Of a stretch of 64,000 bases of DNA, positions 16,659 to 51,315 are shown one piece after another. Numbering within the stretch: the stretch's first letter is position 1; every line of letters starts with the position of its first letter. The translations under genes and the position numbers were made by a program. Origin of the DNA: an uncultured Actinomycetota bacterium (GTDB lineage Bacteria; Actinomycetota; Actinomycetes; Mycobacteriales; Mycobacteriaceae); the NCBI GenBank assembly GCA_963698965.1, contig CAVOSY010000037.1:55141-119140 (forward strand). The letters are read 5' to 3'. The notes under the pieces are model-generated. The model did not search any database, had not been told where the DNA came from, and saw only the letters and a list, made by a program, of their open reading frames with translations.

Positions 16659-16763
16659 GTGACCGCCGTCCGCATCTTCCCCCAGCGTGTATCCCTGGTG
16701 GCGCGGCGGCATGTCGACTTCAAGCGCGTTTGTACCTGTTGTTGTCTGCCTTGCCGCGCCTGA
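16659..16763 (+). CDS. Leaderless Cys-rich leader peptide upstream of sirA (34 aa)
   Basis: CACAAT -10, 7 nt, GTG; MTAVRIFPQRVSLVARRHVDFKRVCTCCCLPCRA. Confidence 0.85.
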   Translation: MTAVRIFPQRVSLVARRHVDFKRVCTCCCLPCRA

Positions 16764-26551: not shown

Positions 26552-26582
26552 GCGTGACACGGCAATCGGAAGCAGGGGCAGC

Positions 26583-31030: not shown

Positions 31031-31043
31031 TTCTCTCGTCTCC

Positions 31044-33887: not shown

Positions 33888-33980
33888 TCAGCGACAACAA
33901 CAGACATCAGCGACAGCACTGAATCCCACGGCAATGAGGGCCAGGACGTGGCCGCTCTTGTTGCCGGACGCTGTCTGCAT
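33888..33980 (-). CDS. Leaderless Cys-rich leader peptide upstream of subI (30 aa)
   Basis: TATTCT -10, 7 nt, ATG; MQTASGNKSGHVLALIAVGFSAVADVCCCR. Confidence 0.85.
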   Translation of the reverse strand: MQTASGNKSGHVLALIAVGFSAVADVCCCR

Positions 33981-34033
33981 GGCGCGAAGAATAACAGAGT
34001 CTGGCAACGCGCTCAGGTCGGGCCTTAGCGCAT

Positions 34034-34120
34034 TTAACGAGTTAGCAACCAGGTGACGATCACCAGCACCACGAGAATGACCAGCACCAAGGTCACCCGA
34101 GAGCGCGGCATTCCGCTCAT
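34034..34120 (-). CDS. Very small membrane protein (28 aa)
   Basis: MSGMPRSRVTLVLVILVVLVIVTWLLTR; TGATG overlap with upstream ORF. Confidence 0.65.
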   Translation of the reverse strand: MSGMPRSRVTLVLVILVVLVIVTWLLTR

Positions 34121-34314
34121 CAGTCCTCGTCCTCGGATTGGTGGCGCGCCCGCCGCAGCAGCCGAATCCCGTTGCCGAGCGCGCCATCGAGAAGGATGGC
34201 GATGCCGTACGCCAGCGCGAGCACGACGGGCATCACCACCGCGGTTTGGGCAACGAACGGCAGGCCGGACAGCCACAGTTCGACGCCGTCCCACCAGTTG
34301 AGGAAGCCGCCCAC
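34120..34314 (-). CDS. Small membrane protein (Rv2401A-like)
   Basis: MGGFLNWWDGVELWLSGLPFVAQ...; conserved position between subI and trehalase. Confidence 0.8.
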   Translation of the reverse strand: MGGFLNWWDGVELWLSGLPFVAQTAVVMPVVLALAYGIAILLDGALGNGIRLLRRARHQSEDED

Positions 34315-36666: not shown

Positions 36667-36930
36667 ATGAGCTATCGCGCAGGGGACGAGTCATCGCGTC
36701 GAGTGATCGACGTTGCCATCGGAATCCTCATCGGGCTGCGCGGCTGCTCCGATATCGAGGCGTTCGACGAACTGGTACGCGTGGTGCATCAAACCGGGGT
36801 CGGCATCGGACGGCTGGCCGCCGGATTGGTGGCGCTGGCAAGCGGTTCGTCCTCTGCCGAGCATGCCGAGGCGTACGCCGTGTGGGGTGAGCTGTTGCGG
36901 CGCGATGGCCTAGTGCACGCGGGAGTTTAG
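36667..36930 (+). CDS. ANTAR-domain-only protein
   Basis: VIDVAIGILIGLRGCSDIEAFDELVRVVHQTG = ANTAR IxxAxGIL...AF..L pattern. Confidence 0.8.
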   Translation: MSYRAGDESSRRVIDVAIGILIGLRGCSDIEAFDELVRVVHQTGVGIGRLAAGLVALASGSSSAEHAEAYAVWGELLRRDGLVHAGV

Positions 36931-38175
36931 GTAGATCGCGAAGTCGACGATGAGCGGCGCCGGCCTGGCCAGTGCGACCGGGGTCAGCCGGCTGTTCGAG
37001 TCGTCGCGGGCGACACCGGTGATCACCCGTCCGCCCAGCCCATTCGGTGTCGCAGGCACCGTCGCGGTGAGAAGCACGCCGTCCCGCCCCGGTCGCGGCC
37101 GGACATAGAACTCGGTGCCGGGTTCGACGGGACCGGTCACCTTCCGTCCAGCGGCGTCGACGATGGTCGCGTCGACGGCCGTCAGCGCTGCGCTGTCGAT
37201 GGCCTGCAGTCGGAGCGGGCCAATCAGGCCATCGACGAATGTCGCGTCATCGGTGCGGATTTCGGCGGGAACGGCGCTTGCGCGCGCCCGTTGTGCGCCG
37301 GCCAGCAAGTAGTCGTACAGGTGCACGATGCGGTGCGGGTTGCGGTACGTCGCCGAGCGGTTCAGCCAGAACCCGACCTCCCCGACGACGACCGCGGAAT
37401 CGGCGAGGGTGACGAGTCGGTAGTACCGGTAGCCCTCACCGCCGCGGCCGTGCCCGCTACGCGACACCGTGCTTCCGACACCGAGTGCCTTGCGGTGGGT
37501 GCCCTTACCCGCCTCGACGTTCAAGCCGGAGGCGGCCACGTCGCGCCAGTTGCGACCGTCGACCGACTTCTGCAGGATCAGTGACACCGCGCTGCGTGAC
37601 GCGAGTTCGACTGAGTAGCCGCCCAATTCGAGCTCTCCCGCGAACGCGAAGAATATGCCGTTGGCGGTGCGGCGCTCGGCGACCGGCACGTTCAGCGGGC
37701 GGTTGTCGAGGTTCAGGTCATTGGTGAAGTGCCAGATCGCGGCCTGCGTCGCGGCGATGGCCTCATGGTCGGTGATGTGGCCTGCGCCGAGCGGGTAGCC
37801 GGCGGCGCGCAGCCTGCGGCTCAGTTCCGCCGGCCGGAGCGCGGGAAACGAGTTGCGCAGGATCCAATCGACTTCCGCCTCGTGGGCGCGGGTGCGCAGG
37901 TTCGGCACTGCGGACCACGTCGCCGCGCGGTAGTGCGCGGGCTTGGTAGGCGCGTGTCCGGTGAAGTCCAGTGAGTAGGCCTCGATGTTCGGGTTGAGCC
38001 GGATGAGGTCAGTGCGCGCCTTGGAGCCGTCGGTGAACACGACGGTGTCGACGGTGTGCGAGTAGGTGCCGCCGCGATACCGGGTCATCCGCGCGATATC
38101 GACGTCGCGGGCGCGGACGTGCCGCCGCACCGAGACGGGCAGGCGAGCAGGCCTTGGCAGGGAAAGAACGGTCAT
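36910..38175 (-). CDS. TQXA/thioester-domain-like protein with Ser at the thioester Cys position
   Basis: AYSLDF, WILRNSFP, ATQAAIWHFT, YDYLL; discoidin-like LQKSVDGRNW...YRYYRL insert; no signal peptide. Confidence 0.82.
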   Translation of the reverse strand: MTVLSLPRPARLPVSVRRHVRARDVDIARMTRYRGGTYSHTVDTVVFTDGSKARTDLIRLNPNIEAYSLDFTGHAPTKPAHYRAATWSAVPNLRTRAHEAEVDWILRNSFPALRPAELSRRLRAAGYPLGAGHITDHEAIAATQAAIWHFTNDLNLDNRPLNVPVAERRTANGIFFAFAGELELGGYSVELASRSAVSLILQKSVDGRNWRDVAASGLNVEAGKGTHRKALGVGSTVSRSGHGRGGEGYRYYRLVTLADSAVVVGEVGFWLNRSATYRNPHRIVHLYDYLLAGAQRARASAVPAEIRTDDATFVDGLIGPLRLQAIDSAALTAVDATIVDAAGRKVTGPVEPGTEFYVRPRPGRDGVLLTATVPATPNGLGGRVITGVARDDSNSRLTPVALARPAPLIVDFAIYLNSRVH

Positions 38176-38266
38176 GCGGGTTGACTTTCTGGGCTCTGAA
38201 CAACGCGTATCGGCGCACCGCCGGATATGGGCGGGCCTTTAACGCAGGGAGAACGGCGTCAGAAAA

Positions 38267-38335
38267 TCAACAACAACAACAGCGCACGTCGAGGAGGCGC
38301 GCGGGACGATGACGCAGCGGCGTCAGCTGTTGCAT
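38267..38335 (-). CDS. Leaderless poly-Cys leader peptide (22 aa) upstream of the TQXA gene
   Basis: TATGGT -10, 6 nt, ATG; MQQLTPLRHRPARLLDVRCCCC; four TGT codons then TGA. Confidence 0.85.
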   Translation of the reverse strand: MQQLTPLRHRPARLLDVRCCCC

Positions 38336-38484
38336 GCCTATACCATACGGCACGCCATGGACGAAACGGCAATCTGTGGATTTACCTCGTCGTGCGCGCT
38401 AACGGTGCGCGCCGCTTCCCGCTGCCCGATGATGGGGATGGCACAGAGTGTCTGCCCTGATTGAGACCAAGTCGGAGGTACATC

Positions 38485-39408
38485 ATGACGACAGCCCAGA
38501 ACGAGTCACAGGCGCTCGGCGATCTCGCCGCACGGCAACTCGCGAATGCAACCAAGACCGTTCCCCAGCTGTCCACCATCACCCCGAGGTTCCTGCTGCA
38601 CCTACTGAGCTGGGTGCCCGTCGAGGCAGGCATCTACCGGGTGAACCGCGTGGTCAATCCCGAACAGGTCGCCATTCACTCCGAGGAGGGCGCGGGCACA
38701 GAAGAGCCGCTACCCGAGACCTATGTCGATTACGAGACCAGCCCGCGCGAGTACACGCTGCGGTCCATCTCGACCCTGCTCGACGTGCACACCCGCGTCT
38801 CCGACCTGTACTCCAGCCCGCACGATCAGATCGCGCAGCAGCTGCGCCTGACGATCGAGACGATCAAGGAGCGCCAGGAGTACGAGCTCGTCAACAACCC
38901 CGAATACGGGCTGTTGTCTCAAGTCACGCCCGAACAAACCATCCAGACGTTGGCGAAGGCGCCTACCCCCGATGACCTGGACGCGCTGATCACCCTGGTG
39001 TGGAAGACACCCAGCTTCTTCCTGACTCATCCGCTCGGTGTGGCTGCATTCGGCCGGGAGGCCACCTATCGCGGTGTGCCGCCGGTGGTCGTCAGCTTGT
39101 TCGGAGCGCAATTCATCACGTGGCGCGGCATCCCGATCGTGCCCTCGGACAAGGTCCCGGTGGAGAAGGGCAAAACCAAGTTCATCCTGGTCCGTACCGG
39201 CGAGGAACGTCAGGGTGTGGTGGGTCTGTTCCAACCGGGGCTGGTTGGCGAGCAGGCGCCGGGGCTGTCGGTGCGGTTCACCGGGATAAACCGGTCGGCG
39301 ATCGCGTCGTACCTGGTGACGCTGTACTCGTCGCTGGCCGTGCTCACCGACGATGCGCTGGCCGTGCTCGACGGCGCGGCCGTGGACCAGTTCCATGAGT
39401 ACAAGTGA
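38485..39408 (+). CDS. Family 2A encapsulin shell protein (SrpI/major membrane protein I type)
   Basis: GGAGG RBS; LANATKTVPQLSTITPRFL, GIYRVNRV, DLYSSPHDQIAQQLRL, PTPDDLD, WRGIPIVPSDKVP. Confidence 0.92.
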   Translation: MTTAQNESQALGDLAARQLANATKTVPQLSTITPRFLLHLLSWVPVEAGIYRVNRVVNPEQVAIHSEEGAGTEEPLPETYVDYETSPREYTLRSISTLLDVHTRVSDLYSSPHDQIAQQLRLTIETIKERQEYELVNNPEYGLLSQVTPEQTIQTLAKAPTPDDLDALITLVWKTPSFFLTHPLGVAAFGREATYRGVPPVVVSLFGAQFITWRGIPIVPSDKVPVEKGKTKFILVRTGEERQGVVGLFQPGLVGEQAPGLSVRFTGINRSAIASYLVTLYSSLAVLTDDALAVLDGAAVDQFHEYK

Positions 39409-41260
39409 GTATCGGTCGATAGACGCCGAAAGCGACCTGCCTATCGGCGCAACGGAACTCGCGGCGCTGGCGTCCCAGTTGTTCGCTGCCAGCGTCCGTC
39501 CCGGACCGGACAGCCCGCCGCAGGCGTCGCCCGTCGCGCCGCGGGGCAATGTCCCCGACACGACGGCGGCGGCGTCCGCCGGTACCGCCGCGGCGGGCTC
39601 GGCCAACCCGTTCACGCCTGCGGCACCGGTGATCCCGCTGACCGACGTGTACGTGCACGCGCCGACTTCGCCTGAGCCCGATGGCATTCCGCAGACGGTC
39701 CCCGTCGCGCCGCGAGGCAATGTGCCGGATGCGGCCTCGGCGCCGTCGGCGGCCTACACAGTCGAGAGTGCACTCGACCCGTATGCGGTACCGACTTCGG
39801 GCATCGTGCCGACGATTCCAGGTGTGCTCGCCGGATCGACGCCAACGTTTCCGGTCGCACCGCGCGGCTCGGTGCCGGGCTGGCTACCGGGCGCGCCGAC
39901 GATCGGCGACCTGGGCTGGTCGGACGCCCCGATGGCGGCGCCGGTGGGTGACGAGGCGAACTACTATTTCCTGAGCGGTCCGGTGATCTCGGACGTCCCC
40001 GCCGAGCCCGTGCCGCAATTGCCCGACAGGCACGAGGTTTTCGACGTCAACGCGGTACGCGCCGACTTCCCGATTCTGCAGGAGACGGTCAACGGCAAGC
40101 CGCTGATCTGGTTCGACAATGCCGCCACCACGCAGAAGCCGCAGGTCGTCATCGACCGGTTGTCCTATTTCTACGCCCACGAGAACTCCAACATCCACCG
40201 TGCCGCTCACGAGCTGGCAGCCAGGGCCACCGACGCCTACGAGGAAGCCCGCGACACCGTGCGGCGCTTCATCGGTGCGTCGAAGAGCGAGGAGATCATC
40301 TTCCTGCGCGGCACCACCGAGGCGATCAACCTGGTCGCGTACGCCTGGGGCGGCAAGCACCTGGGACCGGGCGACGAGATCGTCATCACCCACCTGGAGC
40401 ACCACGCGAATATCGTTCCCTGGCAGCTGCTTTCGCAGCAGACGGGCGCGATCCTGCGGGTCGCGCCGGTGGACGACGCGGGCAACCTGTTGATGTCGGA
40501 GTTCGAGGATCTTCTCGGCCCGAAGACCAAACTGGTTGCTGCCACCCATGTGTCGAATGCGCTGGGGACAGTGACCGAAGCCCAGAAGATCGTCGAGCTC
40601 GGTCACCGGTACGGCGCGCGGGTGTTGATCGACGGTGCCCAGTCGATTCCACACATTCCCATCGATGTGCAGGAGCTCGGTGCGGATTTCTTCGTATTCT
40701 CGGGCCACAAGATCTACGGCCCCACCGGCATCGGTGCGCTCTACGGACGCGAGGACGCGTTAGAGGAAACACCGCCGTGGCAGGGCGGTGGCAACATGAT
40801 CGCAGACGTGACGTTGGAACGTTCGCTCTATCAAGGCCCGCCGAACAAGTTCGAAGCAGGCACCGGCAACATCGCCGACGCGGTCGGCCTCGGCGAGGCG
40901 CTGCGGTACGTCGAACGCGTTGGCATCGAACGGATCGCGGCCTACGAGCATGCGCTGCTGGAGTACGCCACCCCGCGGCTGGCCGATATCGACGGTGTCC
41001 GGCTCGTTGGCACCGCTCGGGAGAAGGCCAGCGTGTTGTCCTTCGTGCTGGCGGGCCATGAGCCGCTGGAAGTAGGCAAGGCGCTCAATGCCGAGGGCAT
41101 CGCGGTCCGTGCCGGGCACCATTGTGCGCAGCCGATCCTGCGACGCCTCGGCCTGGAGGCCACGGTGCGGCCGTCGTTCGCCTTCTACAACACGTTCGAC
41201 GAGATCGACGTGTTCCTCAACGCGGTGCGCCGAATCGCCGAGGGTGAGGTCGCTGTCTAG
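39395..41260 (+). CDS. Encapsulin cargo cysteine desulfurase (SufS type) with about 210-aa disordered N-terminal extension
   Basis: FDNAATTQKP, FSGHK (PLP Lys), RAGHHCAQP catalytic Cys; LAALASQLFA motif in extension. Confidence 0.94.
   Translation: MSTSEYRSIDAESDLPIGATELAALASQLFAASVRPGPDSPPQASPVAPRGNVPDTTAAASAGTAAAGSANPFTPAAPVIPLTDVYVHAPTSPEPDGIPQTVPVAPRGNVPDAASAPSAAYTVESALDPYAVPTSGIVPTIPGVLAGSTPTFPVAPRGSVPGWLPGAPTIGDLGWSDAPMAAPVGDEANYYFLSGPVISDVPAEPVPQLPDRHEVFDVNAVRADFPILQETVNGKPLIWFDNAATTQKPQVVIDRLSYFYAHENSNIHRAAHELAARATDAYEEARDTVRRFIGASKSEEIIFLRGTTEAINLVAYAWGGKHLGPGDEIVITHLEHHANIVPWQLLSQQTGAILRVAPVDDAGNLLMSEFEDLLGPKTKLVAATHVSNALGTVTEAQKIVELGHRYGARVLIDGAQSIPHIPIDVQELGADFFVFSGHKIYGPTGIGALYGREDALEETPPWQGGGNMIADVTLERSLYQGPPNKFEAGTGNIADAVGLGEALRYVERVGIERIAAYEHALLEYATPRLADIDGVRLVGTAREKASVLSFVLAGHEPLEVGKALNAEGIAVRAGHHCAQPILRRLGLEATVRPSFAFYNTFDEIDVFLNAVRRIAEGEVAV
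39530..39880 (+). repeat. Three copies of PVAPRG(N/S)VP(D/G) in the desulfurase extension
   Basis: Copies at 39530-39559, 39701-39730, 39851-39880. Confidence 0.85.
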
Positions 41261-41266
41261 CGGGGC

Positions 41267-41902
41267 CTAGGTGACGAGCGGACGTCCGAGCGGCAGCGCC
41301 CTGCCGCCCGTCTCCTCCCACAACGCGGCGACGTAGAAGTAGATGACGAACGCCACGAACGCGAATACGAACCATCCGCCGGCACGCGTCGCCGCGACAC
41401 TGCCGGTCTGGTTTCCGACCAGAAGCAGCACAAGTGCCACGTCGACAATCGCCATCAGCACGGGGAATGTCCACGGCAGCCGGAGTACCAGCACCGTGAG
41501 CAACCCGATCGTGAGCAGCCAGCTGCCCAGCCAGAGCGCCACTGTCTGTTGCACTCCGGTGTCTGGTATGCCAAACCAGTTGTGCGCCAGACCCAACGAC
41601 AGAACGGCGTAGCTTCCGTAGAAGCCGAAGAACGTGCCGTAGATGGTGGCGTTGATGTTCTGGCTGAGCGCCGCCGACCAGATCGTTGTGACAAGTAGTC
41701 CGATCGCCGTGGCGGACAACAGGATCGGCACCGCGGCAGCGGCCACGTTGATGATTCCGGTGTTGATGAAACCCAGCCCGGTCGCACCCGCAATGATGAG
41801 GGGCAGCGCGATCAGGCCGGGGTTGCCCTCCGGCTTTGCCGGTGGCGGATCGGCGAGTGTCCGCGATGGCGTGTCGATGGTGCGTTCGGCGATATCGGTC
41901 AT
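41267..41902 (-). CDS. GPR1/FUN34/YaaH (SatP-like) small-anion channel
   Basis: GNPGLIALP, ATIYGTFFGFYGSY; six TM helices; GAGGA RBS. Confidence 0.8.
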   Translation of the reverse strand: MTDIAERTIDTPSRTLADPPPAKPEGNPGLIALPLIIAGATGLGFINTGIINVAAAAVPILLSATAIGLLVTTIWSAALSQNINATIYGTFFGFYGSYAVLSLGLAHNWFGIPDTGVQQTVALWLGSWLLTIGLLTVLVLRLPWTFPVLMAIVDVALVLLLVGNQTGSVAATRAGGWFVFAFVAFVIYFYVAALWEETGGRALPLGRPLVT

Positions 41903-41915
41903 GTGAGTCCTCGGG

Positions 41916-42965
41916 CTATCCGGTGGCGAGCGCTGGTTCGCGCGCGGTGGTGAACTCCTGCCACGCGACCAGGACGGCTTCCAGTTGTTCCGCTGAATGT
42001 CTGCCGAGCCCACACTCGGTGGAGATGCCGAATTCCGGAAGAAACTCCGCAGCCACCGCAGCACGGGCGCGGGCGCCGGCGGCACCGTCTTCGGCGTGCA
42101 GCAGCCCGAGGAAGACCTCGGTGTCGGCCTCCAGTGCGAGGTCGGCCAGCGGCTGCCAGTGGGCCCGCTTTGTCCACGACGCGACGGTCGCGGCCTGGAT
42201 CGCATCGATTCGCCGTTGCACGTGCCGGGACAGTCCGTTGGCCAGGGTCACGATCGCGGTAGCGTCGCGCGGCAGGATGTGCCTGCCGCCACGGGCGGCC
42301 GCCTCCTCGTTCGGTGGGTCACCCATGAATGGCGACGCCCCGAATTTCGAGTCGCCGTAGCACAAATGGAAGGTGAGCTCGGCGTCATCGTGCACCCAGT
42401 GCGCGAGGCGGGCGGTGGCGGCGAAGATCGGCTCAACCCCACCGTAGGGGTTGGGGAACCAGCCCTCGATTGTCGCCAACTCGGTCGGCAGATCCCATTG
42501 GATGGCGAGGTCGCTCGGCGGGATCACCTCCTGCAGCGCATCGACGCTGCGCCGCAGTTGCTGTTCGTACGCGTACGCGACCTCGACCTGGGAGTCGAAC
42601 TCCACGAACGAGTTCACCGCGTTGAATGGAGTTGGGATGGATACCAGAAAGCGTGAATCCGGCTTCAGCACACCGTCTTCGCGTGCGTTCTTGAACTCGG
42701 CATACGACTCGGCGGCGATGCTGTGGTAGTCGAGCGCCCCGAAGGAGACCGTGGCGCCAGGACGGACCTTGGCTCGGTTGTCGACGACCTCGAGGGTGGA
42801 GTTCTTCAAGAAGTGGTCGGCCTGCGTCAGCACCCAGTTCGCCCGGTCGCCTGGTTCGCCGTCGGGGACGCGGGTGACGCCTGGCTGAAGGCGCTCACCC
42901 ACGAGCCGGAACGCGTCTTGGATGGTCGGGACGTTGATGCTGCCGGTGAGATAGAAGCCAGTCAT
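41916..42965 (-). CDS. Cobalamin-independent methionine synthase (MetE)-like Zn enzyme, catalytic-domain only
   Basis: TGS N-terminus, PDGEPGDR..W, FHLCYGD and ISTECGLGR Zn ligands. Confidence 0.72.
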   Translation of the reverse strand: MTGFYLTGSINVPTIQDAFRLVGERLQPGVTRVPDGEPGDRANWVLTQADHFLKNSTLEVVDNRAKVRPGATVSFGALDYHSIAAESYAEFKNAREDGVLKPDSRFLVSIPTPFNAVNSFVEFDSQVEVAYAYEQQLRRSVDALQEVIPPSDLAIQWDLPTELATIEGWFPNPYGGVEPIFAATARLAHWVHDDAELTFHLCYGDSKFGASPFMGDPPNEEAAARGGRHILPRDATAIVTLANGLSRHVQRRIDAIQAATVASWTKRAHWQPLADLALEADTEVFLGLLHAEDGAAGARARAAVAAEFLPEFGISTECGLGRHSAEQLEAVLVAWQEFTTAREPALATG

Positions 42966-42994
42966 TGCGAATTCCTTTGGTAACGAGCGATGGT

Positions 42995-44227
42995 CTACAG
43001 AAGCACGCCGAGGCGCGGCGGGTTGGTTCCGAACAGGGTGTGGTTGCCGAGGTGGACGTATTTCCAGCGAGCGGGGTCGTGAAGCGAATGCACGCGCACG
43101 TTGCGCCAGTGCCGGTCCAGCGCGTAGCCGGCGTCGGTCGCCGATGCGCCGGCGAGTTCGAAGATGCCGCTGGCGATCTCGACCGCGAACTCCTGCGCCA
43201 GGGCCTTCGCGGCGGCGATGTTGAGCGACGCGCTGGCCGCCGCCTCCCGGGTCAGCTCCGGTGCGGCCAGTGCCTCGTCGACCAGCCCGGCACCGCGTGC
43301 GAGCAGTGCCTCCAGGGCGTACAGCCGCGCCGTCAGCTCACCGAATCGGCGGACGACGTGTGGTTCCTCTGCGGCGCTGTCCACGCCGGCCTCAAACCAC
43401 GGCCGAGTTTTCGTGGTGACGAACCGCGCGCCGTCTTCCAGTGCGGCACGGGCGATGCCGATGTCGACGGCGGCGTGCAACGCCTGATCGAACGCGCCGA
43501 GCACGGACGGCGGCGCGGTCACCGGGTCGGGATCGGGACCTTCGTCGATGACGAACTCGTCGTCGACGACCACCTGATCGAGCACGACCTCGCCGCTCGC
43601 CGTGCCCCGCTGACCGAATGACGTCCAGCGGTCCAGGTTCAGGCTGACCCCTGGATCGGCCGGCTGGACGAATACGGTTGCGCCGTGTGAGGGTTCGGTG
43701 TCCGGAATCCGCGCGGCGACCCCGATCCACGTCGCGCCGAGCGCGCCGGTTGCATAGAACTTCTTGCCATTGAGCACCCAGGTGTCGTCGTCCCGGCGCG
43801 TCACCGTCGTGAGCCGCTCGACACTGGTACGGGTACCCCGCTCGACGGTGGCATTGCCGATTTGCGCCCCGTCGAGCACATCGCGGTAGATCCGCGGGGC
43901 CGGGTCGGCGCCCTCCAAACCCTGGATCGCCGCGCTGAGCACGAAGTGCGACAGCAGCAGCTGGCCGACGGCCGAATCCGCTTGGGACAGAATGCGCAGC
44001 ACTTCGACCGCGGTCGACTGTGGAAGATCGGGTCCACCATGGGCCGCAGGAACGATGATCCCGAGCAGCCCCGATGCGGCGACCTGCCGCAGTTCCTGCT
44101 CCGGCCACGTCCCCGTGAGCTCACGCTCGACGACACCTGCTGCGATGGTGGCGGCAACGGAACGAGCGGTCTGCAACGCCTCGTGGGTCGAACTGAGAAC
44201 CGGGGTGGTGCTCTCGGTGGTCGTCAT
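42995..44227 (-). CDS. Acyl-CoA-dehydrogenase-fold flavin monooxygenase, SfnB/DszC-like
   Basis: NGKKFYATG, FGQRGTASG, LDRHWRNVRVHSLHDPARWK; TACGGT -10 7 nt before ATG (leaderless). Confidence 0.85.
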   Translation of the reverse strand: MTTTESTTPVLSSTHEALQTARSVAATIAAGVVERELTGTWPEQELRQVAASGLLGIIVPAAHGGPDLPQSTAVEVLRILSQADSAVGQLLLSHFVLSAAIQGLEGADPAPRIYRDVLDGAQIGNATVERGTRTSVERLTTVTRRDDDTWVLNGKKFYATGALGATWIGVAARIPDTEPSHGATVFVQPADPGVSLNLDRWTSFGQRGTASGEVVLDQVVVDDEFVIDEGPDPDPVTAPPSVLGAFDQALHAAVDIGIARAALEDGARFVTTKTRPWFEAGVDSAAEEPHVVRRFGELTARLYALEALLARGAGLVDEALAAPELTREAAASASLNIAAAKALAQEFAVEIASGIFELAGASATDAGYALDRHWRNVRVHSLHDPARWKYVHLGNHTLFGTNPPRLGVLL

Positions 44228-44269
44228 GGTGGAAACCGTAGGGCGGCCGTGTGGTTGGAGGAACCCGAG

Positions 44270-45223
44270 TCAAGCGACGCTAAAGGGGCGTTCAGGAACG
44301 CTGTAGACCGCTTCGGCGCTGAGGTGCGCACCGACGGCCCGCACAAGCGAAAGGAACGTCGCCAACGGTGTCCCGGCCGCCGGCCGATCGACCGTCGCCA
44401 TCGATATGCGCCGGATCGGGCGCGGGCCGGCCACCCGCCGCACCGCGACGTCTGCGCGGACGGCGCCCGCTGCAAGCGAAGGCACAAGTGACACACCGAG
44501 ATTCGCGGCCACCAGACCCTGCACCGTCGGATAGTCCTCGGCGCGGAAGGTGACCGATGGAATGAAACCCGCGCGACGGCACGCTTGCTGAAAGACGCGG
44601 ACGTCGGGACAGGTCCCCGTTTCGGTGCTGACCACCCACTGTTCGGCGGCCAGCGCCGCGAACGGCACCTCCGCCGCGGCCGCCAGCCGGTGTCGCGCGG
44701 GCAGCACGACGAAGAACTCGTCGTCGTAGACGGGCATGGTGTGGACCCCGGAAAACTCGGCGTCCTCCCCTGGCACCTCGGTGATGACCGCGGCATCGAC
44801 TCCGTCGCTGCTCAGCATCGCGACGCCCTCCTCGGGATCGGCGGAAACCAGATCCAGGTCGATGTCTGGGCACAGCGTCCGGAACCGCGCGAACGCCAGC
44901 GGCAGGATCGCCGCGGCGGCGCTGGCGAACGACGCCACCCGCACCACCCCGGGCCTGGCGGTGGCCAACAGGGTCAGATCGCGTTCCGCGGCCGCGACCG
45001 CACCGAGGATCACATCGGCGTGCTCGAGCAGCCTCGTCCCCGCAGCGGTCGGCCGGACCCCGGTCGGGCTGCGGACCAGCAGTGTGGAGCCGACGTCGCG
45101 CTCGAGTGCACTGATCTGCTGAGACACCGCCGACGTGGTGTAGTTCAGCGATGCTGCGGCCGCGGAAAGCGAGCCGCAGCGGATGACTTCCTGCAGCACG
45201 GCCAGACGGCGCACATCGAACAC
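44270..45223 (-). CDS. LysR-family transcriptional regulator
   Basis: GSLSAAAASLNYTTSAVSQQISALE HTH; substrate-binding domain. Confidence 0.94.
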   Translation of the reverse strand: MFDVRRLAVLQEVIRCGSLSAAAASLNYTTSAVSQQISALERDVGSTLLVRSPTGVRPTAAGTRLLEHADVILGAVAAAERDLTLLATARPGVVRVASFASAAAAILPLAFARFRTLCPDIDLDLVSADPEEGVAMLSSDGVDAAVITEVPGEDAEFSGVHTMPVYDDEFFVVLPARHRLAAAAEVPFAALAAEQWVVSTETGTCPDVRVFQQACRRAGFIPSVTFRAEDYPTVQGLVAANLGVSLVPSLAAGAVRADVAVRRVAGPRPIRRISMATVDRPAAGTPLATFLSLVRAVGAHLSAEAVYSVPERPFSVA

Positions 45224-45288
45224 GCCGGAAATCTACTCGGCCCGGGCCGAGCCGCCCACGGTTGCGATCAGCCCGATGAAATCGCCGC

Positions 45289-46290
45289 TCAGTAGGCCGA
45301 GGCCACACCCTTCGGTGTGATGCCGTGGTGCAGTTCCGCGACGTCGGGGTGAGCGCGTGTTCGCGACTTCCACGCGTTCTCGCCGTAGGTGTTGAAGATG
45401 GGGTTGTCGGGATCGGCTTCGACCCCACGGGACAGCGCGGCCAGCTCGGGCGGTAGCGAGATGACCGGGATGAGCGCGTCCAGCGACGGGTTCAGGAAGT
45501 ACGGGATCGATACGCGGTCGCTGCCGGGCTGCGGGGCCAGCACTCGGTGGCGAGTAGCCCGCAGGTATCCACCGGTGGCCACTTCGAGCAGTTCTCCGAT
45601 GTTGACGATGAAAGCGCCTGCAAGCGGCGGGACATCGACCCACTCACCCACCGAGAGCTCGACCTGTAGGCCCTCTGATTCAGGCTCGACCACAAGCAGC
45701 GTCAGAACACCTGAATCCTTGTGCGCGCCAACACCTTGCGGGGTGTCACTGGTGCCCGGATAGCGCACCACCTTGATCAGGGTGGCCGGTCGGTCGGTGA
45801 ACGCCGGATCGAACGTGTCCTCGGCCGCACCCAGCGACACCGCCCAGTGGCGCAGCAGTCGAAGCCCAACGACCGACAGCGCAGTGTCCCACTCCTCGAA
45901 CGCCGCACGAAAACCTGATGGCGTCGACGGCCACAGATTGGGGCCCTGCAGCCGCCAGTAGCCCTCTGCGCCGTCGATCACCCGCCGTTCGGGGCCGATG
46001 TCGATCTGCTCGCGCCAGTCCACCTTGCCGTTGGTCAGCTCACCGCCGATCCGTGAATAGCCGCGAAACTGCGGGCTCTTCAGCTGGCTGATCTCGTTCT
46101 TGGCGTCCAGCGGTAGCGCGAAGAACTCCCGTGCCAGGCCAAGCACTTGATCGACCTGCGCTTGCGGCACTCCGTGACCGACAAGGTAGAAGAACCCGGC
46201 GTCATGGGCGGCTTCACGCAGCCGCGCCCGGAACTCGGCAGGCTCGGCATCGGCCTCGGCGAGGTCAAGAACCGGAAGCATGGCTGCCAT
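45289..46290 (-). CDS. 2-oxoglutarate/Fe(II) dioxygenase, isopenicillin N synthase family
   Basis: GFFYLVGHGV, HKDSG (HxD), ATRHRV (His), RVSIPYF (RxS). Confidence 0.92.
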   Translation of the reverse strand: MAAMLPVLDLAEADAEPAEFRARLREAAHDAGFFYLVGHGVPQAQVDQVLGLAREFFALPLDAKNEISQLKSPQFRGYSRIGGELTNGKVDWREQIDIGPERRVIDGAEGYWRLQGPNLWPSTPSGFRAAFEEWDTALSVVGLRLLRHWAVSLGAAEDTFDPAFTDRPATLIKVVRYPGTSDTPQGVGAHKDSGVLTLLVVEPESEGLQVELSVGEWVDVPPLAGAFIVNIGELLEVATGGYLRATRHRVLAPQPGSDRVSIPYFLNPSLDALIPVISLPPELAALSRGVEADPDNPIFNTYGENAWKSRTRAHPDVAELHHGITPKGVASAY

Positions 46291-46413
46291 TGTCGACCTG
46301 TCCTGTCGCGCTGACCATCTGGCTTAACCGAGGCGACATGGGTGTGAAGAAAGCGTTGAATCATCGTGCGTCGATCTCTTGGCAGTCCGTGGGCGTCGGA
46401 CCATCATCGTGGC

Positions 46414-46685
46414 ATGAGTTACCGCGGACCTCGGGCCGATGACACATCACGAGAGGTGATCGACACAGCGATCGGCATCCTCGTTGGCCTGCGCGGCTGC
46501 TCGCCAGAGGACGCCTTTGCCGAACTCGCACGAGTCGTGCGCCAGACCGGATCGGTATCGGAAGCATCGCCACCGGGCTGGTGGCACTTGCCAGCGGTTC
46601 GTCCTCACCCGATCACGCCGAGGCGTTCAACGCGTGGGGCGAGCTGATCAGGCACGGCAGGACGGCCGCCTTAGCGGCGCGCTGA
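46414..46685 (+). pseudogene. Second ANTAR-only gene, broken by a 1-nt deletion
   Basis: MSYRG...VIDTAIGILVGLRGCS...RQTG, shift near 46550, then IGIGSIATGLVALASGSSSPDHAEAFNAWGEL; collinear with 36667-36930. Confidence 0.8.
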
Positions 46686-46711
46686 TACCAGCGCGCCGTC
46701 ACGCGCCGGGC

Positions 46712-47470
46712 TCATCGCGGGTTTTTCTCGCCTGCCTCGACGGCGATGGGCAGCCTGTTCTCGGCGGGTGCCACCGGGCAGGTCGCGAAGTCGGTAAATG
46801 AGCACGGCAGATTCGATGCCCGATTGAAGTCGAGCGTCACCGTGCCGTCGGCTTCCGGTGCGGCGATCGAAAGTGCCCGCGCCGCAGGATATGTCGTCAC
46901 ACCGCTGGTGGCATCGGTGAACAGCACATGCAGCCCACCGTCCGCGCGGGCGAAGGCAACCAGCTGCAGTGCGGCGCCTGCCAGTTGGAAGTCGATGATG
47001 CCCACCGCGTTGTGGTGATGTTCAAGGCCCTCGACGACTGCACCTGTCGTGAGGGTCGTCGGCTGGTCATACGGCCTGAACGTACCGGTGACACGCCATT
47101 GCTCGCTCGGCGGATAAGCCGGAATGCCGTTGTAGCGCGCCAGATGCGGTGACTTCGGGTCGTGTATGCGTAATGCCACCGAACCGGTTCGGCGGATGAC
47201 CTCGATCCGGCGCTCCCCGTCCTCGACGAGCAGTCCTGGTGCACCCTCGACAGGTTCCAGCTTCTCGGTTCCGTCGATCCCGTCGACGTACACCGCATCG
47301 GCATCCGCGCGCCACCGGCCGGGCAGGTCGGCGACGGTCTCGAATTCGTCGGCGACCCAGTACAAACCGGTCAAGCTGACCCAGCCGAGCGGGTCGCCGT
47401 AATACCGTTCGCGCTCACCGTGCCATTCGTTCCATGCTGTCTCGAACGTTGTCTCTGTGCTTGTGGTCAT
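46712..47470 (-). CDS. DUF1684 family protein
   Basis: GWVSLTGLYW, FTDATSG.TTY, LDFNRASNLPCSFTDFATCP. Confidence 0.88.
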   Translation of the reverse strand: MTTSTETTFETAWNEWHGERERYYGDPLGWVSLTGLYWVADEFETVADLPGRWRADADAVYVDGIDGTEKLEPVEGAPGLLVEDGERRIEVIRRTGSVALRIHDPKSPHLARYNGIPAYPPSEQWRVTGTFRPYDQPTTLTTGAVVEGLEHHHNAVGIIDFQLAGAALQLVAFARADGGLHVLFTDATSGVTTYPAARALSIAAPEADGTVTLDFNRASNLPCSFTDFATCPVAPAENRLPIAVEAGEKNPR

Positions 47471-47495
47471 ATGTCTCACATCCTTACTTCGAGGA

Positions 47496-48896
47496 CTAAC
47501 CCGTTGCGCTGCTGTCGGTCTCATCGCTGTGTCGTCGTGTCAGCGGTTCACGCAGCCCGAGATGGCCGCGCAACGTCGTCGACGCGTACTCGGTCCGGTA
47601 CACCCCGCGTTCCTGTAGTGCGGGCACCAGCCAATCGACGATCTCGTCGAGTCCGCCGGGCACGATGTACGGCGAGATGTTGAAGCCGTCGGTCGCGCCG
47701 GCACGTACCCACCGGGCCAGCTCGTCTGCGACCTGCTCCGGCGTGCCCACAAAGCCGGAGCGCTCTGAGGTTTCGATGGCAACTTGGCGCAGAGACAGGT
47801 TCTTGGCCTCCGCGAGCGCACGCCACTCCTTCGCGATGGCGATCGGGTCCTTGCCGTCCCTCGCCGCGCCGCGGGTGGCCGAAATCGGCGCAGGCACCGG
47901 ATCGAACTCCGGCAATGGACCGTCAGGGTCGCGGTCAGACAGGTCACGCCCCCACACCAGACCCACAAGGGACAACGCCGTCTGTCCCGTGTACTGGCCC
48001 TCGAGGACCCAGCGTCGCTTCTCCTCGACCTCTGAAGCCTTCTCCGCCAGCACGATCTGAGTCCCCGGAAGGATTCTGATGTCGTCGGCCGGCCTGCCCG
48101 CTGCGAGCAGACGCGCGCGGATGTCGGTGGCGAACGCCAACGCATCGTCGAAGTGCGTGCCGTGACGGGAGAAGATGACATCGGCATTGGCCGCGGCGAA
48201 ATCTCGGCCCGTCGGCGAATCCCCGGCCTGGAAAATGACCGGATGTCCCTGGGGGCTGCGCGGCAACGTCGCGTCGAGTGAGATCTCGAACTGAGACGTC
48301 GAACGGTCGAGATGCCGTACCGCGGTTGGATCGGACCAGAACTCGCTGGCGGTAGATGACGCGATGGCGTCGTCGGCCCACGAATCCCAGATCGCTCGCG
48401 CCGCGCGAATGAACTGACCGGCCCGCTCGTAGCGCAGCGCATGATCGAGAAAACCGCCGCGCCGAAAATTCTCTCCCGTCCAGGCGTTGTCGGTCGTGAC
48501 GGCGTTCCACCCCGCCCGGCCTCCGGAGAGGATGTCGAGCCCCGCCAACCGGCGAGCCAGGTCGCCGGGTTCGTTATACGTGGTGTTCTGGGTTGCGACG
48601 AGACCGATGCGCTCGGTGATGCCCGCCAGGGCCGACAATTGCGCGATCGCGTCGGGGCGGCCGACGATGTCGAGGTCCAGGATCTTGCCGTCCTGCTCGC
48701 GCAATCGGAGACCCTCTCCGAGGAAGAACGCGTCGAACAATCCCCGCTCGGCCGTCGTGACGACGTGTCGGAAGGTTTCGAAGTCGATCTGCGAACCACT
48801 CGCTGCGTCGGACCAGATCGTGGTGTGGTTCACGCCCTGAAAGAACACGCCGAAGTGAACCTGTGCGTCGGGACGGAGCACGTCGGAGGAGCCCAT
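47496..48896 (-). CDS. NtaA/DmoA/SoxA-family FMN-dependent monooxygenase
   Basis: AERGLFDAFFL, SGGRAGWNAVT, SPQGHPVIFQAGDS, TLRGHLGL. Confidence 0.92.
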   Translation of the reverse strand: MGSSDVLRPDAQVHFGVFFQGVNHTTIWSDAASGSQIDFETFRHVVTTAERGLFDAFFLGEGLRLREQDGKILDLDIVGRPDAIAQLSALAGITERIGLVATQNTTYNEPGDLARRLAGLDILSGGRAGWNAVTTDNAWTGENFRRGGFLDHALRYERAGQFIRAARAIWDSWADDAIASSTASEFWSDPTAVRHLDRSTSQFEISLDATLPRSPQGHPVIFQAGDSPTGRDFAAANADVIFSRHGTHFDDALAFATDIRARLLAAGRPADDIRILPGTQIVLAEKASEVEEKRRWVLEGQYTGQTALSLVGLVWGRDLSDRDPDGPLPEFDPVPAPISATRGAARDGKDPIAIAKEWRALAEAKNLSLRQVAIETSERSGFVGTPEQVADELARWVRAGATDGFNISPYIVPGGLDEIVDWLVPALQERGVYRTEYASTTLRGHLGLREPLTRRHSDETDSSATG

Positions 48897-48902
48897 GACT
48901 AT

Positions 48903-49961
48903 TCACACCTTCGCGTAGCGGTTGGCGGGCCGGTCCAGACCGAGGTGGCCGCGCAGCGATGACCCTGGCACGGGCCGATGCGCCACTCCCGTCCTGAGCA
49001 AGGCTGGCAGGACGTAGCGCGCAAGGGCGGGTAGATCCTGGTCGATGACCATGGGGAACAGGCGCACTCCATTGCTGTGCGCCGCGAGCTCGGTTAGCAG
49101 CTCCACGAATCCGCTTGTGCTGCCGATGTATTGGAGGCGCCGACGCCGAGTTGCCAGCTCGTACTGGTTCAGCGCCGAGAGGCGGTCCGCGGCGGCGGCA
49201 TCAGTTGTGTCGAGGGCGACGTCGATCTCGATGACGGTGAGCCCGCTGCTGCGGGTCGCTGCATCGACGGCCGCGTCGCGGTCGGACTCGGTTACGAGAA
49301 CGATGTCGACCTGGTCGCGGTCGGCTTCGGCACCGAAGACGACCAATTGACCCTGCGGCGGTCTCGGGACGATGGCCGGCCCCTTCACGCTGAACGATTC
49401 GCCCTCGAAATCGACGTAGTGCAGCTTGTCGCGGTCCAGGAATCGGCCGCGCGCGTAGTCGCGGATGACCGCGTCGTCCTCCCATGAATCCCACAGGTCG
49501 CGCACCACGGTCAGCGAATCCCGTTGCTCGCGGTCGAGATCGGCCTGCTCGGCGACGACCGGGCTCCCCCAGGCCCGTGCGGCCGCCGGATCGAAGGCGC
49601 GCGCGGCTATCCAGCCGCCACGGCCTCGGGACGCGTAGTCGAGGGTGGCCAGTTGCGACGATGTGTGAAACGGCTCGGCATATGTGGTCTCGACTACGGG
49701 AACCAGGCCGATCGTCGACGTCGTCGCCGCGACGAACGACGCCCGGTTGACCGCGTCCACGCGTGCTCTGATGCCGCCGCGCGGAGGCAGGATCGAATCG
49801 TCGAACGTCGCAAACGTGAATCCCGCGTTCTCGGCCGCACGCACCTTCTGCAGGAGCGTTCGTCCGCTCAGCGAATCGTTCGGCGGATGATTCGCGTGGC
49901 GCCATGCCGCCGGATGGCTTCCCTCGCCGTCCAACTCGATGCCCAGCGCGAAAACGCTCAT
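48903..49961 (-). CDS. LLM-class flavin-dependent monooxygenase
   Basis: HPAAWR, AENAGFTFATFDD, LATLDYASRGRGGW, SVKGPAIVPRPPQG. Confidence 0.88.
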   Translation of the reverse strand: MSVFALGIELDGEGSHPAAWRHANHPPNDSLSGRTLLQKVRAAENAGFTFATFDDSILPPRGGIRARVDAVNRASFVAATTSTIGLVPVVETTYAEPFHTSSQLATLDYASRGRGGWIAARAFDPAAARAWGSPVVAEQADLDREQRDSLTVVRDLWDSWEDDAVIRDYARGRFLDRDKLHYVDFEGESFSVKGPAIVPRPPQGQLVVFGAEADRDQVDIVLVTESDRDAAVDAATRSSGLTVIEIDVALDTTDAAAADRLSALNQYELATRRRRLQYIGSTSGFVELLTELAAHSNGVRLFPMVIDQDLPALARYVLPALLRTGVAHRPVPGSSLRGHLGLDRPANRYAKV

Positions 49962-51028
49962 AGCACAACCTCTTTCCGGCTCGACTGCGCGGCCAGCGGT
50001 CTGCTCGCTATCTGGTCACGAAGAACCGGCGCAACGTCGGACTGGAACAGTTCGAGACTACGGCGCTTCTGAGCGACCGTCACACCGTCGGCCTCGGCGC
50101 TGAGGTGGATCACCTCGTGACCGAGTTGCTCGTGGTAGCGGCCCACCTTGTCGATCACCTGCTGCGGGCTGCCGATGAGCGCCGAGCTGCGGTCGACGAA
50201 GTCTTCGATGGACTCGAACACCACCGGCAGTCCGGCGCGCCGCTGAAACGCCAAGCGTGACTCGAAAGTAAGCCGGTACTCGGCCACGGCCTGCTGAGTC
50301 GTCGCAGCGATGTGAAACCCTGCGGTTCCCGCGCCGACCAGCGCATCTCCGGGATCGTGGCCGTACTGCTCCCAACGTTGCCGGTAGTGGCGCACCAGCT
50401 CGGCGTACGGCTCGATTGGGTAGGTGACGTTGGCCGAGAAGATCGGGTCGCCGTTGCGGGCCGCCAGGTCGACGGAATCCCTGCTCGTCGCACTGCCGTG
50501 CCAGATCCGAATCCGCGGCTGTAACGGCCGCGGGAGTGCCTTGGCGTCGACCAGCGGTGGGCGAAAACTGCCGGACCAGGTCACGTGCTCGTTGTCCCAC
50601 AGCAAGCGGAACAGCTCATAGCCCTCACGATTACGGTCCCACTGGTCGGTGGTGGTCACGTGGAACAACTCGGCCTGCGCGGCGCCGTTGCCTTTACCGA
50701 TGATCAGTTCCAGCCGGCCGTCGGACAGGTTGTCCAGCGTCGAATAGTCCTCGAATGCCCGGACGGGATCGAGCAGGCTCAACGTGGTCACCGCCGTGAA
50801 CAGCGCAATCCGCGACGTCCGCGCTGCGATGTTGCTCAGCACCACCGGCGGGGACGATGAGATGAACGGATCCTCATGGCGCTCGCCCACGGCGAAGCCG
50901 TCGAAACCCAGCTGCTCGGCGAGCACCGCGCTGTCGACCACTTCGCGCAGCCGATCTGCGGGACTCTTCTTCTCACCCGATACGGGGTTCGGATGGTGCG
51001 CAATCAGCGTCAGCAACAGAAACTTCAA
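49958..51028 (-). CDS. LLM-class (luciferase-like) monooxygenase
   Basis: AEQLGFDGFAVGERH, SSSPPVVL, LDNLSDGRLELIIGKGN, IWHGSATS. Confidence 0.9.
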   Translation of the reverse strand: MKFLLLTLIAHHPNPVSGEKKSPADRLREVVDSAVLAEQLGFDGFAVGERHEDPFISSSPPVVLSNIAARTSRIALFTAVTTLSLLDPVRAFEDYSTLDNLSDGRLELIIGKGNGAAQAELFHVTTTDQWDRNREGYELFRLLWDNEHVTWSGSFRPPLVDAKALPRPLQPRIRIWHGSATSRDSVDLAARNGDPIFSANVTYPIEPYAELVRHYRQRWEQYGHDPGDALVGAGTAGFHIAATTQQAVAEYRLTFESRLAFQRRAGLPVVFESIEDFVDRSSALIGSPQQVIDKVGRYHEQLGHEVIHLSAEADGVTVAQKRRSLELFQSDVAPVLRDQIASRPLAAQSSRKEVVL

Positions 51029-51315
51029 TGCTCATCCTCGACATCCGGCTGCCTGGTCGTTGTCACGCCCACAACCCCATCTGGTCCCTGCAGGCGCAGC
51101 GGACGCCCAACTGATGCTGCTCAACACGAACCGCGTCCTGGGCCCGTTCATTCCCGTCTGGGACAGCCGGCCGGATATGACAGCGAGACAATGCCGCACC
51201 GCAGTTCGTCGCGCCTTCGCCGCACGCCCGCGGTGCTGTTGTCGATGTCCGGCTGGCGCCATGGCCCAGAGGACCGCGTGTTGCCGAAGGCCAGCAGATG
51301 GACCTCGCGCGTCAC
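51029..51315 (-). pseudogene. Possible collapsed remnant of another NtaA-like monooxygenase
   Basis: GTG start: MTREVHLLAFGNTRSSGPWRQPDIDNSTAGVRRR resembles NtaA N-termini, then loses coding character. Confidence 0.35.

Follow-up and report, generated by a model that had tools for sequence, protein, structure and literature searches.

Does a run of neighbouring genes whose products are almost free of cysteine (Cys) and methionine (Met) form one undescribed sulfur system, or is it an assembly of separable parts? The question is raised by a stretch of 64,000 nucleotides from an uncultured bacterium of the Mycobacteriaceae (contig CAVOSY010000037.1, positions 55,141 to 119,140; hereafter the window), in which a family 2A encapsulin gene, the gene of its cysteine desulfurase cargo and a series of other genes, lying between 36910 and 51028, encode such proteins. 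A reading made from the letters alone (the sequence-only reading) had gathered eleven of these proteins, several of them without any annotated sulfur role, into a single scavenge-store-recycle system around the encapsulin, and had proposed it as an undescribed one. Our analyses make it quite probable that we are dealing with a composite sulfur-limitation locus, i.e., a mosaic in which a compartment and attenuators that were already known stand beside two scavenging modules independent of each other, and not with one new system.

We have counted Cys and internal Met in the window proteins from public gene calls and by an independent count, and have ranked the 63 proteins accordingly. The gene calls and the Pfam labels were taken from public contigs with identical proteins, which cover nearly the whole window. 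The eleven block proteins hold 5 Cys and 8 internal Met, that is, 13 sulfur residues in 4,067 residues (0.32%), while the other 52 proteins hold 368 in 15,092 (2.44%; Fisher p 5e-24, Mann-Whitney p 5e-7), so that the earlier figure of about 0.3% for the block stands. Given as Cys/internal Met, the counts are 0/1 for the TQXA/thioester-domain-like (TED-like) protein, 0/0 for the encapsulin, 1/3 for the desulfurase, 0/1 for the YaaH-family channel, 2/1 for the MetE-like protein, 0/0 for the SfnB-like flavoenzyme, 0/1 for the 2-oxoglutarate (2OG) oxygenase, 2/0 for the DUF1684 protein, and 0/0, 0/1 and 0/0 for three luciferase-like monooxygenases (LLMs). All counts of the sequence-only reading were reproduced exactly, including 9 Cys and 10 Met in the 676 residues of the GH15 protein, the absence of Cys from CysA, CysW and CysT, and the single Cys24 of SubI in its lipobox LLAAC. 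Its list of genes was right for the eleven sulfur-poor proteins and incomplete in one respect: a LysR-type regulator encoded within the block at 44270-45223 (-), with 4 Cys and 3 Met (2.2%, rank 37 of 63), had been overlooked.

In the ranking, which that reading had suggested, the eleven proteins take positions 1-6, 8, 10, 12, 14 and 17 from the lowest Cys+Met content, and the sulfate transporter proteins SubI, CysT, CysW and CysA take positions 7, 9, 13 and 16. Eleven of 12 consecutive genes lie at or below 0.87% (permutation p 1e-5), a level reached by only 2 of the 48 proteins without a sulfur role. Each of the eleven is also below expectation when taken on its own (binomial p from 5e-6 to 0.04), with DUF1684, YaaH and the MetE-like protein as the weakest cases. 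Actually, the depletion tracks genes and not the region, since the GH15 gene, which is located between the sulfate transporter genes and the trio of TED-like, encapsulin and desulfurase genes, has a normal sulfur content. SirA (2.5%) and CysH (4.3%) are normal as well. As had been stated before, the few Cys that are left are conserved functional residues: Cys577 in the GHHCA motif of the desulfurase, the lipobox Cys of SubI, the two Cys of the invariant His-x-Cys and Glu-Cys pairs in the MetE-like protein, and both Cys of the DUF1684 protein, which are shared with its homologues in the PDB.

Could the pattern be a property of the families concerned, or a matter of chance, without adaptive meaning? 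In favour of this, the DUF1684 family is sulfur-poor as a whole, and family 2A shells from other phyla have just 1-3 sulfur residues. Against it stand the clustering of the genes, given above, and the normal content of paralogues or homologues in six families. Paralogues and homologues of the LLM, ACAD, ABC-transporter, cysteine desulfurase and 2OG families contain 1.6-5.9% Cys+Met. Within the window, an LLM paralogue at 12647-13507 has 2.1%, and the sugar ABC transporter at 23459-27677 has 1.6-4.0%, versus 0.29-0.85% for the sulfate transporter. In Gordonia and Nocardia loci, an ordinary ACAD protein has 3.5%, an IscS-like desulfurase 2.9% and a Meth_synt_2 protein 1.7%; and the four closest PDB homologues of the 2OG oxygenase have 2.1-5.9% over the aligned region, compared with 0.36% for the window protein. 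The LysR regulator keeps an ordinary content in another locus too (2.1% in L024; loci are labelled L0xx).

The orthologues, in up to 120 other species, are on the contrary depleted like the window proteins. The encapsulin has neither Cys nor internal Met in all 73 orthologues, the desulfurase has 1-2 Cys in all 69, and the TED-like orthologues have a median of 0.7-0.85% Cys+Met. LLM and ACAD relatives in the compared loci do not exceed 0.9%, and the LLM orthologues in L078 and L020 are likewise depleted. In addition, 111 of 119 relatives of the MetE-like protein contain 2 Cys and 1 Met, while YaaH orthologues are without Cys in 106 of 110 cases and without internal Met in 96 of 110. This depletion is kept at 60-99% identity, although other positions vary, and an explanation by family or chance is thus largely refuted and can hardly be credited. 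The sequence-only reading had named equal Cys/Met poverty of these families everywhere as the finding that would speak against it, and of these families DUF1684 is the one that we find to be sulfur-poor in general. The comparison of sequences shows that the depletion is specific to these genes and mostly not a family property, with DUF1684 as the exception. Being real, gene-specific and conserved, it can reasonably serve to mark proteins that are adapted to sulfur limitation. Its use in recruiting genes without an annotated sulfur role accordingly holds for TQXA, YaaH, the MetE-like gene and the 2OG gene, since depletion was seen in their orthologues wherever these were compared, and holds weakly for DUF1684.

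Another explanation is that the selection was for chemical robustness rather than for sulfur economy, i.e., that Cys and Met, which of all residues are oxidised or persulfidated most readily, were lost from flavin monooxygenases leaking peroxide and from a shell holding elemental sulfur or polysulfide. The shell free of Cys and Met in 73 species fits this, as does the fact that most of the depleted enzymes are oxygenases. In M. smegmatis, moreover, encapsulation was reported to protect the desulfurase from oxidation (PMC11659603). Yet the sulfate permeases, the binding protein and the YaaH channel, which have no redox chemistry, are depleted too, whereas the oxygen-using LLM at 12647-13507 and an FAD monooxygenase at 59342-60508 have normal content. 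Besides, sulfur starvation also lowers the thiol buffers, so that the two pressures would act together in any case. We regard selection for robustness instead of economy as very unlikely.

If the composition marks sulfur limitation, do the marked genes form one unit? We have compared the best 80 of 298 encapsulin-locus matches, all 80 of them from Mycobacterium. The window encapsulin is 91-97% identical to the encapsulins of 80 GTDB mycobacterial species and identical to none, by which we assign the window to an uncultured environmental Mycobacterium. Across these loci, only the TED-like, encapsulin and desulfurase genes remain neighbours: the TED-like gene is the divergent neighbour of the encapsulin gene in 77 of the 80, and the desulfurase gene follows the encapsulin gene in 73. 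Orthologues of the YaaH, MetE-like, LysR, 2OG, DUF1684 and 356-residue LLM genes adjoin the encapsulin in 1-3 of the 80 loci only. The closest species (L010) lacks everything corresponding to 41267-51028, and its desulfurase gene is directly followed by PknH_C and lepA. The genes for YaaH, MetE-like protein, SfnB-like enzyme, LysR and 2OG oxygenase (module A) occur alone in L024 and as a decayed remnant in L013; those for the three LLMs and DUF1684 (module B) occur alone in L078, L020 and L050. In other mycobacteria this site is taken by other LLM and ABC-transporter genes, which are sulfur-poor as well. Outside the mycobacteria, Nocardia callitridis has the core of module A (2OG, LysR, SfnB-like, MetE-like), equally sulfur-poor, and the 20 kb surveyed there contain no encapsulin gene. 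The 2OG, SfnB-like and MetE-like genes, again sulfur-poor, are found in the same order in Gordonia soli, with no encapsulin nearby and no LysR gene called between them.

These observations bear directly on the idea that all eleven proteins form one integrated system around the encapsulin, in which the scavenging enzymes pass sulfur on to cysteine, the desulfurase stores it in the shell and the others remobilise it. Its attraction lies in the clustering of the genes beside a sulfate transporter and in their common sulfur-poor composition; in addition, sulfur-poor LLM and ABC genes stand beside the trio in other species, so that this neighbourhood has repeatedly been used for sulfur genes, and the TED-like protein is a constant partner of the encapsulin. 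The separate occurrence of the modules and their complete absence from L010 speak against it, as does the fact that the only accessory components named in published neighbourhood analyses of family 2A encapsulins are rhodanese and serine acetyltransferase. We consider a single integrated system quite unlikely. The proposal of such a system is thus upheld in that composition marks its genes as adapted to sulfur limitation, and a single unit around the encapsulin is not supported. By the gene orders compared, modules A and B are independent and transferable, and were inserted between the desulfurase gene and lepA. The word undescribed goes too far as well, considering that sulfur sparing, the encapsulin-desulfurase pair and attenuation by polycysteine ORFs are all in the literature.

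The compartment at the centre of the locus is a known one. Its shell protein (38485-39408 (+), 307 aa) is a family 2A encapsulin of the Mmp1/SrpI-like type, with an SrpI-like domain (SrpI/PF19307 type, Pfam E 1e-94) as the sole Pfam domain and without a cNMP-binding insertion; it aligns end to end with the Mmp1 structures (PDB 8WOL/9KSL, E 1e-189). In M. leprae and M. avium, this encapsulin is also known as an antigen, the immunodominant one of 35 kDa. The cargo cysteine desulfurase (39395-41260 (+), 621 aa) scores 855 bits against NCBIfam NF041166 (cut-off 800); its Aminotran_5 domain covers residues 238-607, and a long disordered loading region makes up its N-terminal part. The start of its gene overlaps the end of the shell gene, and the two form an operon. 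The N-terminal region (39395-40030 (+)) contains three copies of PVAPRG(N/S)VP, which are probably the cargo-loading motifs described for Enc-CD. Judged by likeness to the M. smegmatis protein, shell and cargo would assemble and store sulfur as the published family 2A nanocompartment does. For that closely related protein, shell assembly, packaging of the desulfurase and accumulation of sulfur were shown experimentally (PMC11659603), and family 2A compartments store elemental sulfur; in Synechococcus and Acinetobacter their operons respond to sulfur starvation by induction (PMC8049743, PMC10836720).

What, then, is the constant neighbour of the shell gene? The protein encoded at 36910-38175 (-) matches the Pfam thioester domain (TED, PF08341) with 41.8 bits (cut-off 22) and TIGR03934 with 59 bits (cut-off 30). 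Its true start is probably Met30 at position 38088 (392 aa), which would bring its count to 0/0. T114 and Q115 of the TQXA motif are invariant among the orthologues, while no Cys is conserved across 75 of them, and the Cys that a thioester needs is therefore absent. At its column stands an invariant Ser in the motif AYSLDF (Ser68, or Ser39 counted from Met30). When a Cys is put in its place in silico, the Pfam TED score rises by 6.6 bits, from 43.2 to 49.8, and a Cys at either adjoining position lowers it; since only this position gains, the Ser occupies the thioester-Cys column. A Cys-Gln thioester would accordingly be impossible, a Ser-Gln ester or a purely structural role being possible instead, and on these sequence grounds the protein should not be classed as a functional thioester protein.

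Nor does this protein have the architecture of a secreted or anchored adhesin, as inspection of its sequence finds neither a hydrophobic N-terminal segment nor LPXTG. In an AlphaFold2 (AF2) model (pLDDT 81), the N-terminal part is TED-like, and a discoidin/CBM32-like sandwich, a long helix and an Ig-like domain make up the rest. With the full-length model, Foldseek returned CBM32/discoidin-type matches to the middle domain only and no solved thioester domain, and the TED assignment consequently rests on sequence models. The one match in a profile search with the TED alignment was to the TQ motif of Cpa (E 0.84), and a PDB sequence search gave nothing useful for the TED-like protein, the MetE-like protein or YaaH.

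A further line of evidence lies upstream of the genes. In a six-frame scan for Cys runs near stop codons, we have found four runs of Cys codons against 0.4 expected. One short open reading frame (ORF), at 16698-16763 (+), encodes VARRHVDFKRVCTCCCLPCRA up to its stop codon and lies about 115 nt upstream of sirA in the sirA-cysH group; its start is uncertain (GTG at 16698 or 16659). A second, at 33888-33980 (-), encodes MQTASGNKSGHVLALIAVGFSAVADVCCCR upstream of subI; its sequence is conserved in 25 species, with a run of at least 3 Cys codons in 5 loci, and in the others the consensus reads, in our own interpretation, as a two-Cys run. The third, at 38267-38335 (-), encodes MQQLTPLRHRPARLLDVRCCCC upstream of the TED-like gene and corresponds to Ms4536A (bioRxiv 10.1101/834739). 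In 70 loci the TED-gene leader ends in at least 3 Cys codons, with as many as seven among the examples listed, and the peptide varies while the Cys run is always present. The sequence-only reading had placed the TQXA gene in the sulfur-limitation set by composition, and the polycysteine leader gives independent cis-regulatory evidence for this placement.

Exact copies of the repeat CTGTTGTTGTC are confined to the regions before sirA and subI, and a copy with a single mismatch precedes the TED-like gene. As a DNA operator shared by the three it was rejected, because the repeats are in-frame Cys codons that end the short ORFs. A Cys- and Met-rich upstream ORF before the encapsulin gene (MDETAICGF...) was also discarded as a candidate, as it is not conserved in 53 species. 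Two small hydrophobic ORFs are located upstream of the subI leader, one of 64 aa at 34120-34314 (-), kept at 73-87% in 24 species, and one of about 29 aa at about 34033-34122 (-). Rfam gave no match at gathering thresholds over the whole window, nor did the subI leader give one when E values as high as 1 were allowed.

Leaders of this kind are known. The polycysteine element was first predicted by Seliverstov et al. in 2005 (PMC1262725), and in M. smegmatis polycysteine ORFs were shown experimentally to attenuate downstream genes in response to cysteine, with Ms4527 and Ms4533 being induced in low cysteine (Canestrari et al., bioRxiv 10.1101/834739). That study, in which the leader Ms5788A was altered and assayed with a reporter, listed Ms4536A upstream of Ms4536/TQXA and only speculated on membership of the regulon. 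The sulfur-poor composition of the TQXA product and the conservation of the leader in 70 species, both read from sequence, support such membership. The constant pairing with the encapsulin, together with a cysteine-sensing leader, suggests the TED-like protein as the most interesting lead of the locus.

Module A begins with a GPR1/FUN34/YaaH-family channel (41267-41902 (-), Pfam 49 bits), whose gene is convergent with the desulfurase gene, with 6 bp between the stop codons (41260-41267). A sulfur-free YaaH orthologue also lies in Williamsia maris (L091, 1-4277), a few kb from cysNC, cysD, a sulfotransferase gene, an LLM gene and a LysR gene, where module A is absent. The next gene (41916-42965 (-)) encodes a protein whose AF2 model (pLDDT 85) is a (beta/alpha)8 barrel matching the catalytic barrels of MetE: the top 18 Foldseek matches are MetE barrels, with probability 1.0, TM scores of 0.54-0.61 and 12-15% identity. 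Its sequence has no Pfam match even at E 5, no NCBIfam match and no PDB sequence match at E 1; among named species, its closest relative is in Mycolicibacterium moriokaense. According to the model, then, the protein has the catalytic-barrel fold of MetE and stands outside the MetE/Meth_synt_2 sequence family. H200, C202, E317 and C318 are invariant, and by similarity of motif we infer that this His-x-Cys ... Glu-Cys set may form a zinc site equivalent to the MetE ligands.

The remaining members of module A are an SfnB/DszC-like flavin oxidoreductase of the ACAD fold (42995-44227 (-)), the LysR regulator (Pfam HTH_1 and LysR_substrate), which is kept within the module in L024 and in Nocardia, and the 2OG/Fe(II) oxygenase (45289-46290 (-), DIOX_N and 2OG-FeII_Oxy). 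The flavin oxidoreductase has four ACAD Pfam domains, and SfnB (TIGR04022) is the best of its 14 ACAD-type matches, followed by DszC; at 392 bits it stays under the SfnB cut-off of 431, and we call it SfnB-like rather than a confirmed SfnB equivalog. Conserved and uncharacterised, the trio of 2OG oxygenase, SfnB-like and MetE-like proteins is a new lead, and the YaaH channel free of sulfur amino acids is another.

Module B consists of the DUF1684 gene (46712-47470 (-), Pfam E 1e-44), which accompanies LLM genes in L078 and L050, and of three LLM genes (47496-51028 (-)) whose products of 466, 352 and 356 aa have together 1 sulfur residue in 1,174. The 466-aa protein belongs to the NtaA/DmoA family, the 352-aa protein shows a partial NtaA-like match, and the 356-aa protein is CE1758-like. 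Encoded at 48903-49961 (-), the 352-aa protein aligns with the NtaA/DmoA and Bac_luciferase models over their N-terminal half alone and is conserved alongside the other two LLMs; it may be a non-catalytic partner subunit.

The edges of this module bear traces of decay. At the junction of modules A and B, between the 2OG and DUF1684 genes, lies a frameshifted ANTAR pseudogene (46363-46679 (+)), found by blastx as two matches in different frames to ANTAR genes of L044, L037, L027, L024 and others. Upstream of the 356-aa LLM gene, blastx finds an N-terminal remnant of about 37 codons of another NtaA-type LLM gene (51205-51315 (-)), with 73-82% identity to residues 1-37 of proteins of 431-443 aa in L070, L071 and L079; this stub is preceded by a small hydrophobic ORF. 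Both relics appear to record past rearrangements. An intact gene for an 87-aa ANTAR-domain protein (36667-36930 (+), Pfam ANTAR 33 bits, cut-off 27) is convergent with the TED-like gene, the two sharing 21 bp at the 3' end of the latter. Homologues occur in 19 loci, mostly 3' of the desulfurase gene, and antitermination by ANTAR proteins may be a means of controlling the variable sulfur modules.

As for the wider window (G+C about 66%), the order of genes is phoH, rsmE, dnaJ, hrcA, sirA-cysH-cbiX, the sugar ABC transporter, cysA-W-T-subI, GH15, ANTAR, the sulfur-poor block, two PknH_C genes and lepA. We take this to be the gene order of the M. tuberculosis Rv2391-Rv2404c region with about 15 kb inserted between GH15 and lepA. 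The genes for sulfite reductase (sirA, NIR_SIR) and PAPS reductase (cysH, PAPS_reduct) occupy 16877-19272 (+), and those of the cysA-cysW-cysT-subI sulfate ABC transporter, whose four products are all sulfur-poor, occupy 29969-33771 (-). The PhoH-like ATPase gene (4865-6976 (-)) carries an apparent LAGLIDADG-type intein, its Pfam domains being PhoH, LAGLIDADG_3 and PhoH in order.

Based on the above analyses, the composite locus can be pictured in four layers. Sulfate would be taken up and reduced by subI-cysTWA and sirA-cysH; the conserved trio of Cys-less TED-like protein, family 2A shell and desulfurase cargo would form the second layer, module A with its channel, MetE-fold protein, SfnB-like flavoenzyme, LysR and 2OG oxygenase the third, and module B with its three flavin-dependent LLMs and DUF1684 the fourth. 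The near absence of Cys and Met from the structural and enzymatic proteins, and not from the regulator, would be a signature of sulfur sparing (elemental economy): proteins needed in quantity when sulfur is scarce may have been selected for minimal sulfur cost, with catalytic and metal-binding Cys kept. Expression of sirA, subI and the TED-like gene is probably set by the leader ORFs, whose terminal Cys runs would sense the supply of cysteine through translation, and module A is probably under its own LysR. We infer induction by sulfur limitation, small organosulfur substrates (sulfones, sulfonates, methylated thiols) and a hand-off between scavenging and storage.

Several points weigh against this picture. 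Polycysteine leaders are absent in front of the encapsulin operon and of both modules, the modules having been checked here and in other species, which leaves their co-regulation with the cys genes unsupported. No flavin reductase partner is encoded in the block. The SfnB-like protein and the LLMs of 352 and 356 aa fall below the NCBIfam cut-offs, so that their substrates are guesses. The composition of DUF1684 tells little because the family is sulfur-poor in general: among 94 full-length representatives (32-63% identity) the median is 1.39%, and 29% of them lie at or below 0.8%, as low as the window protein. We found almost nothing on DUF1684 in the literature, and no sulfur-starvation transcriptome for a mycobacterium with modules A and B.

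A bolder reading can be put forward tentatively, as a possibility that we think will rather not hold. It takes the TED-like protein as a third, unrecognised component of the encapsulin system and, separately, the 2OG/SfnB-like/MetE-fold trio, with or without YaaH, as an undescribed pathway by which Mycobacteriales acquire sulfur from a small organosulfur compound. The TED-like protein may then be cytoplasmic, with a polycysteine leader that turns on its expression when cysteine is short; the thioester Cys of its ancestor may have given way to the invariant Ser, which might form a Ser-Gln ester or no cross-link; and it may dock on the shell or aid the release of stored sulfur, in place of the rhodanese of other phyla.

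Overall, under the mosaic interpretation no new kind of system is revealed. The analysis shows that a plain count of Cys and Met, checked against paralogues, can pick a sulfur-limitation gene set from raw mycobacterial sequence. It provides for the TQXA gene the corroboration that the M. smegmatis attenuator study lacked, and ties this gene to the adjoining encapsulin. It also identifies a relative of thioester domains in which the reactive Cys is always Ser, and it singles out a conserved module of three enzymes, along with a channel that lacks sulfur amino acids.

Compared with known systems, the shell-cargo core of the window shows no difference from SrpI of Synechococcus elongatus, Mmp1/Enc-CD of M. 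smegmatis and the A. baumannii compartment, and its two-gene operon is as described for actinobacteria. The rhodanese and serine acetyltransferase of published family 2A systems are absent here, and mycobacterial loci have instead the constant divergent TQXA/TED-like neighbour, for which a keyword search of the encapsulin papers found no mention. The window leaders resemble the leaderless short-ORF polycysteine attenuators of M. smegmatis, ending in 3-4 Cys codons on the same strand and at the same positions (sirA, subI, TQXA); the text of that attenuator study has zero matches for encapsulin or thioester domain, and the TQXA gene is not tied to the encapsulin there.

With regard to composition, Scott et al. 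(2007) reportedly described low-sulfur proteins in the sulfate-starvation response of P. putida. In the related Rhodococcus qingshengii IGTS8, sulfur sparing is documented for starvation-induced proteins, where transporters and desulfonating oxygenases are poor in Cys and Met relative to isozymes (PMC8557817). The same families (LLM, SfnB/DszC-like, sulfate ABC transporter) appear in the window, whereas here the signature was read from sequence alone, and it extends to the encapsulin trio, YaaH, the MetE-fold protein, the DIOX_N-type 2OG oxygenase and DUF1684.

Clusters for scavenging organosulfur compounds are known as sfn/msu in Pseudomonas, dszABC in Rhodococcus and ssu/seu in Corynebacterium glutamicum. 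Like them, the locus combines LLMs of the NtaA/DszA type with an ACAD-fold flavoenzyme of the SfnB/DszC type and a dedicated regulator. Unlike them, it is without a flavin reductase and without an SsuD or SfnG equivalog, and it adds a MetE-fold protein, a 2OG oxygenase, a YaaH channel and DUF1684.

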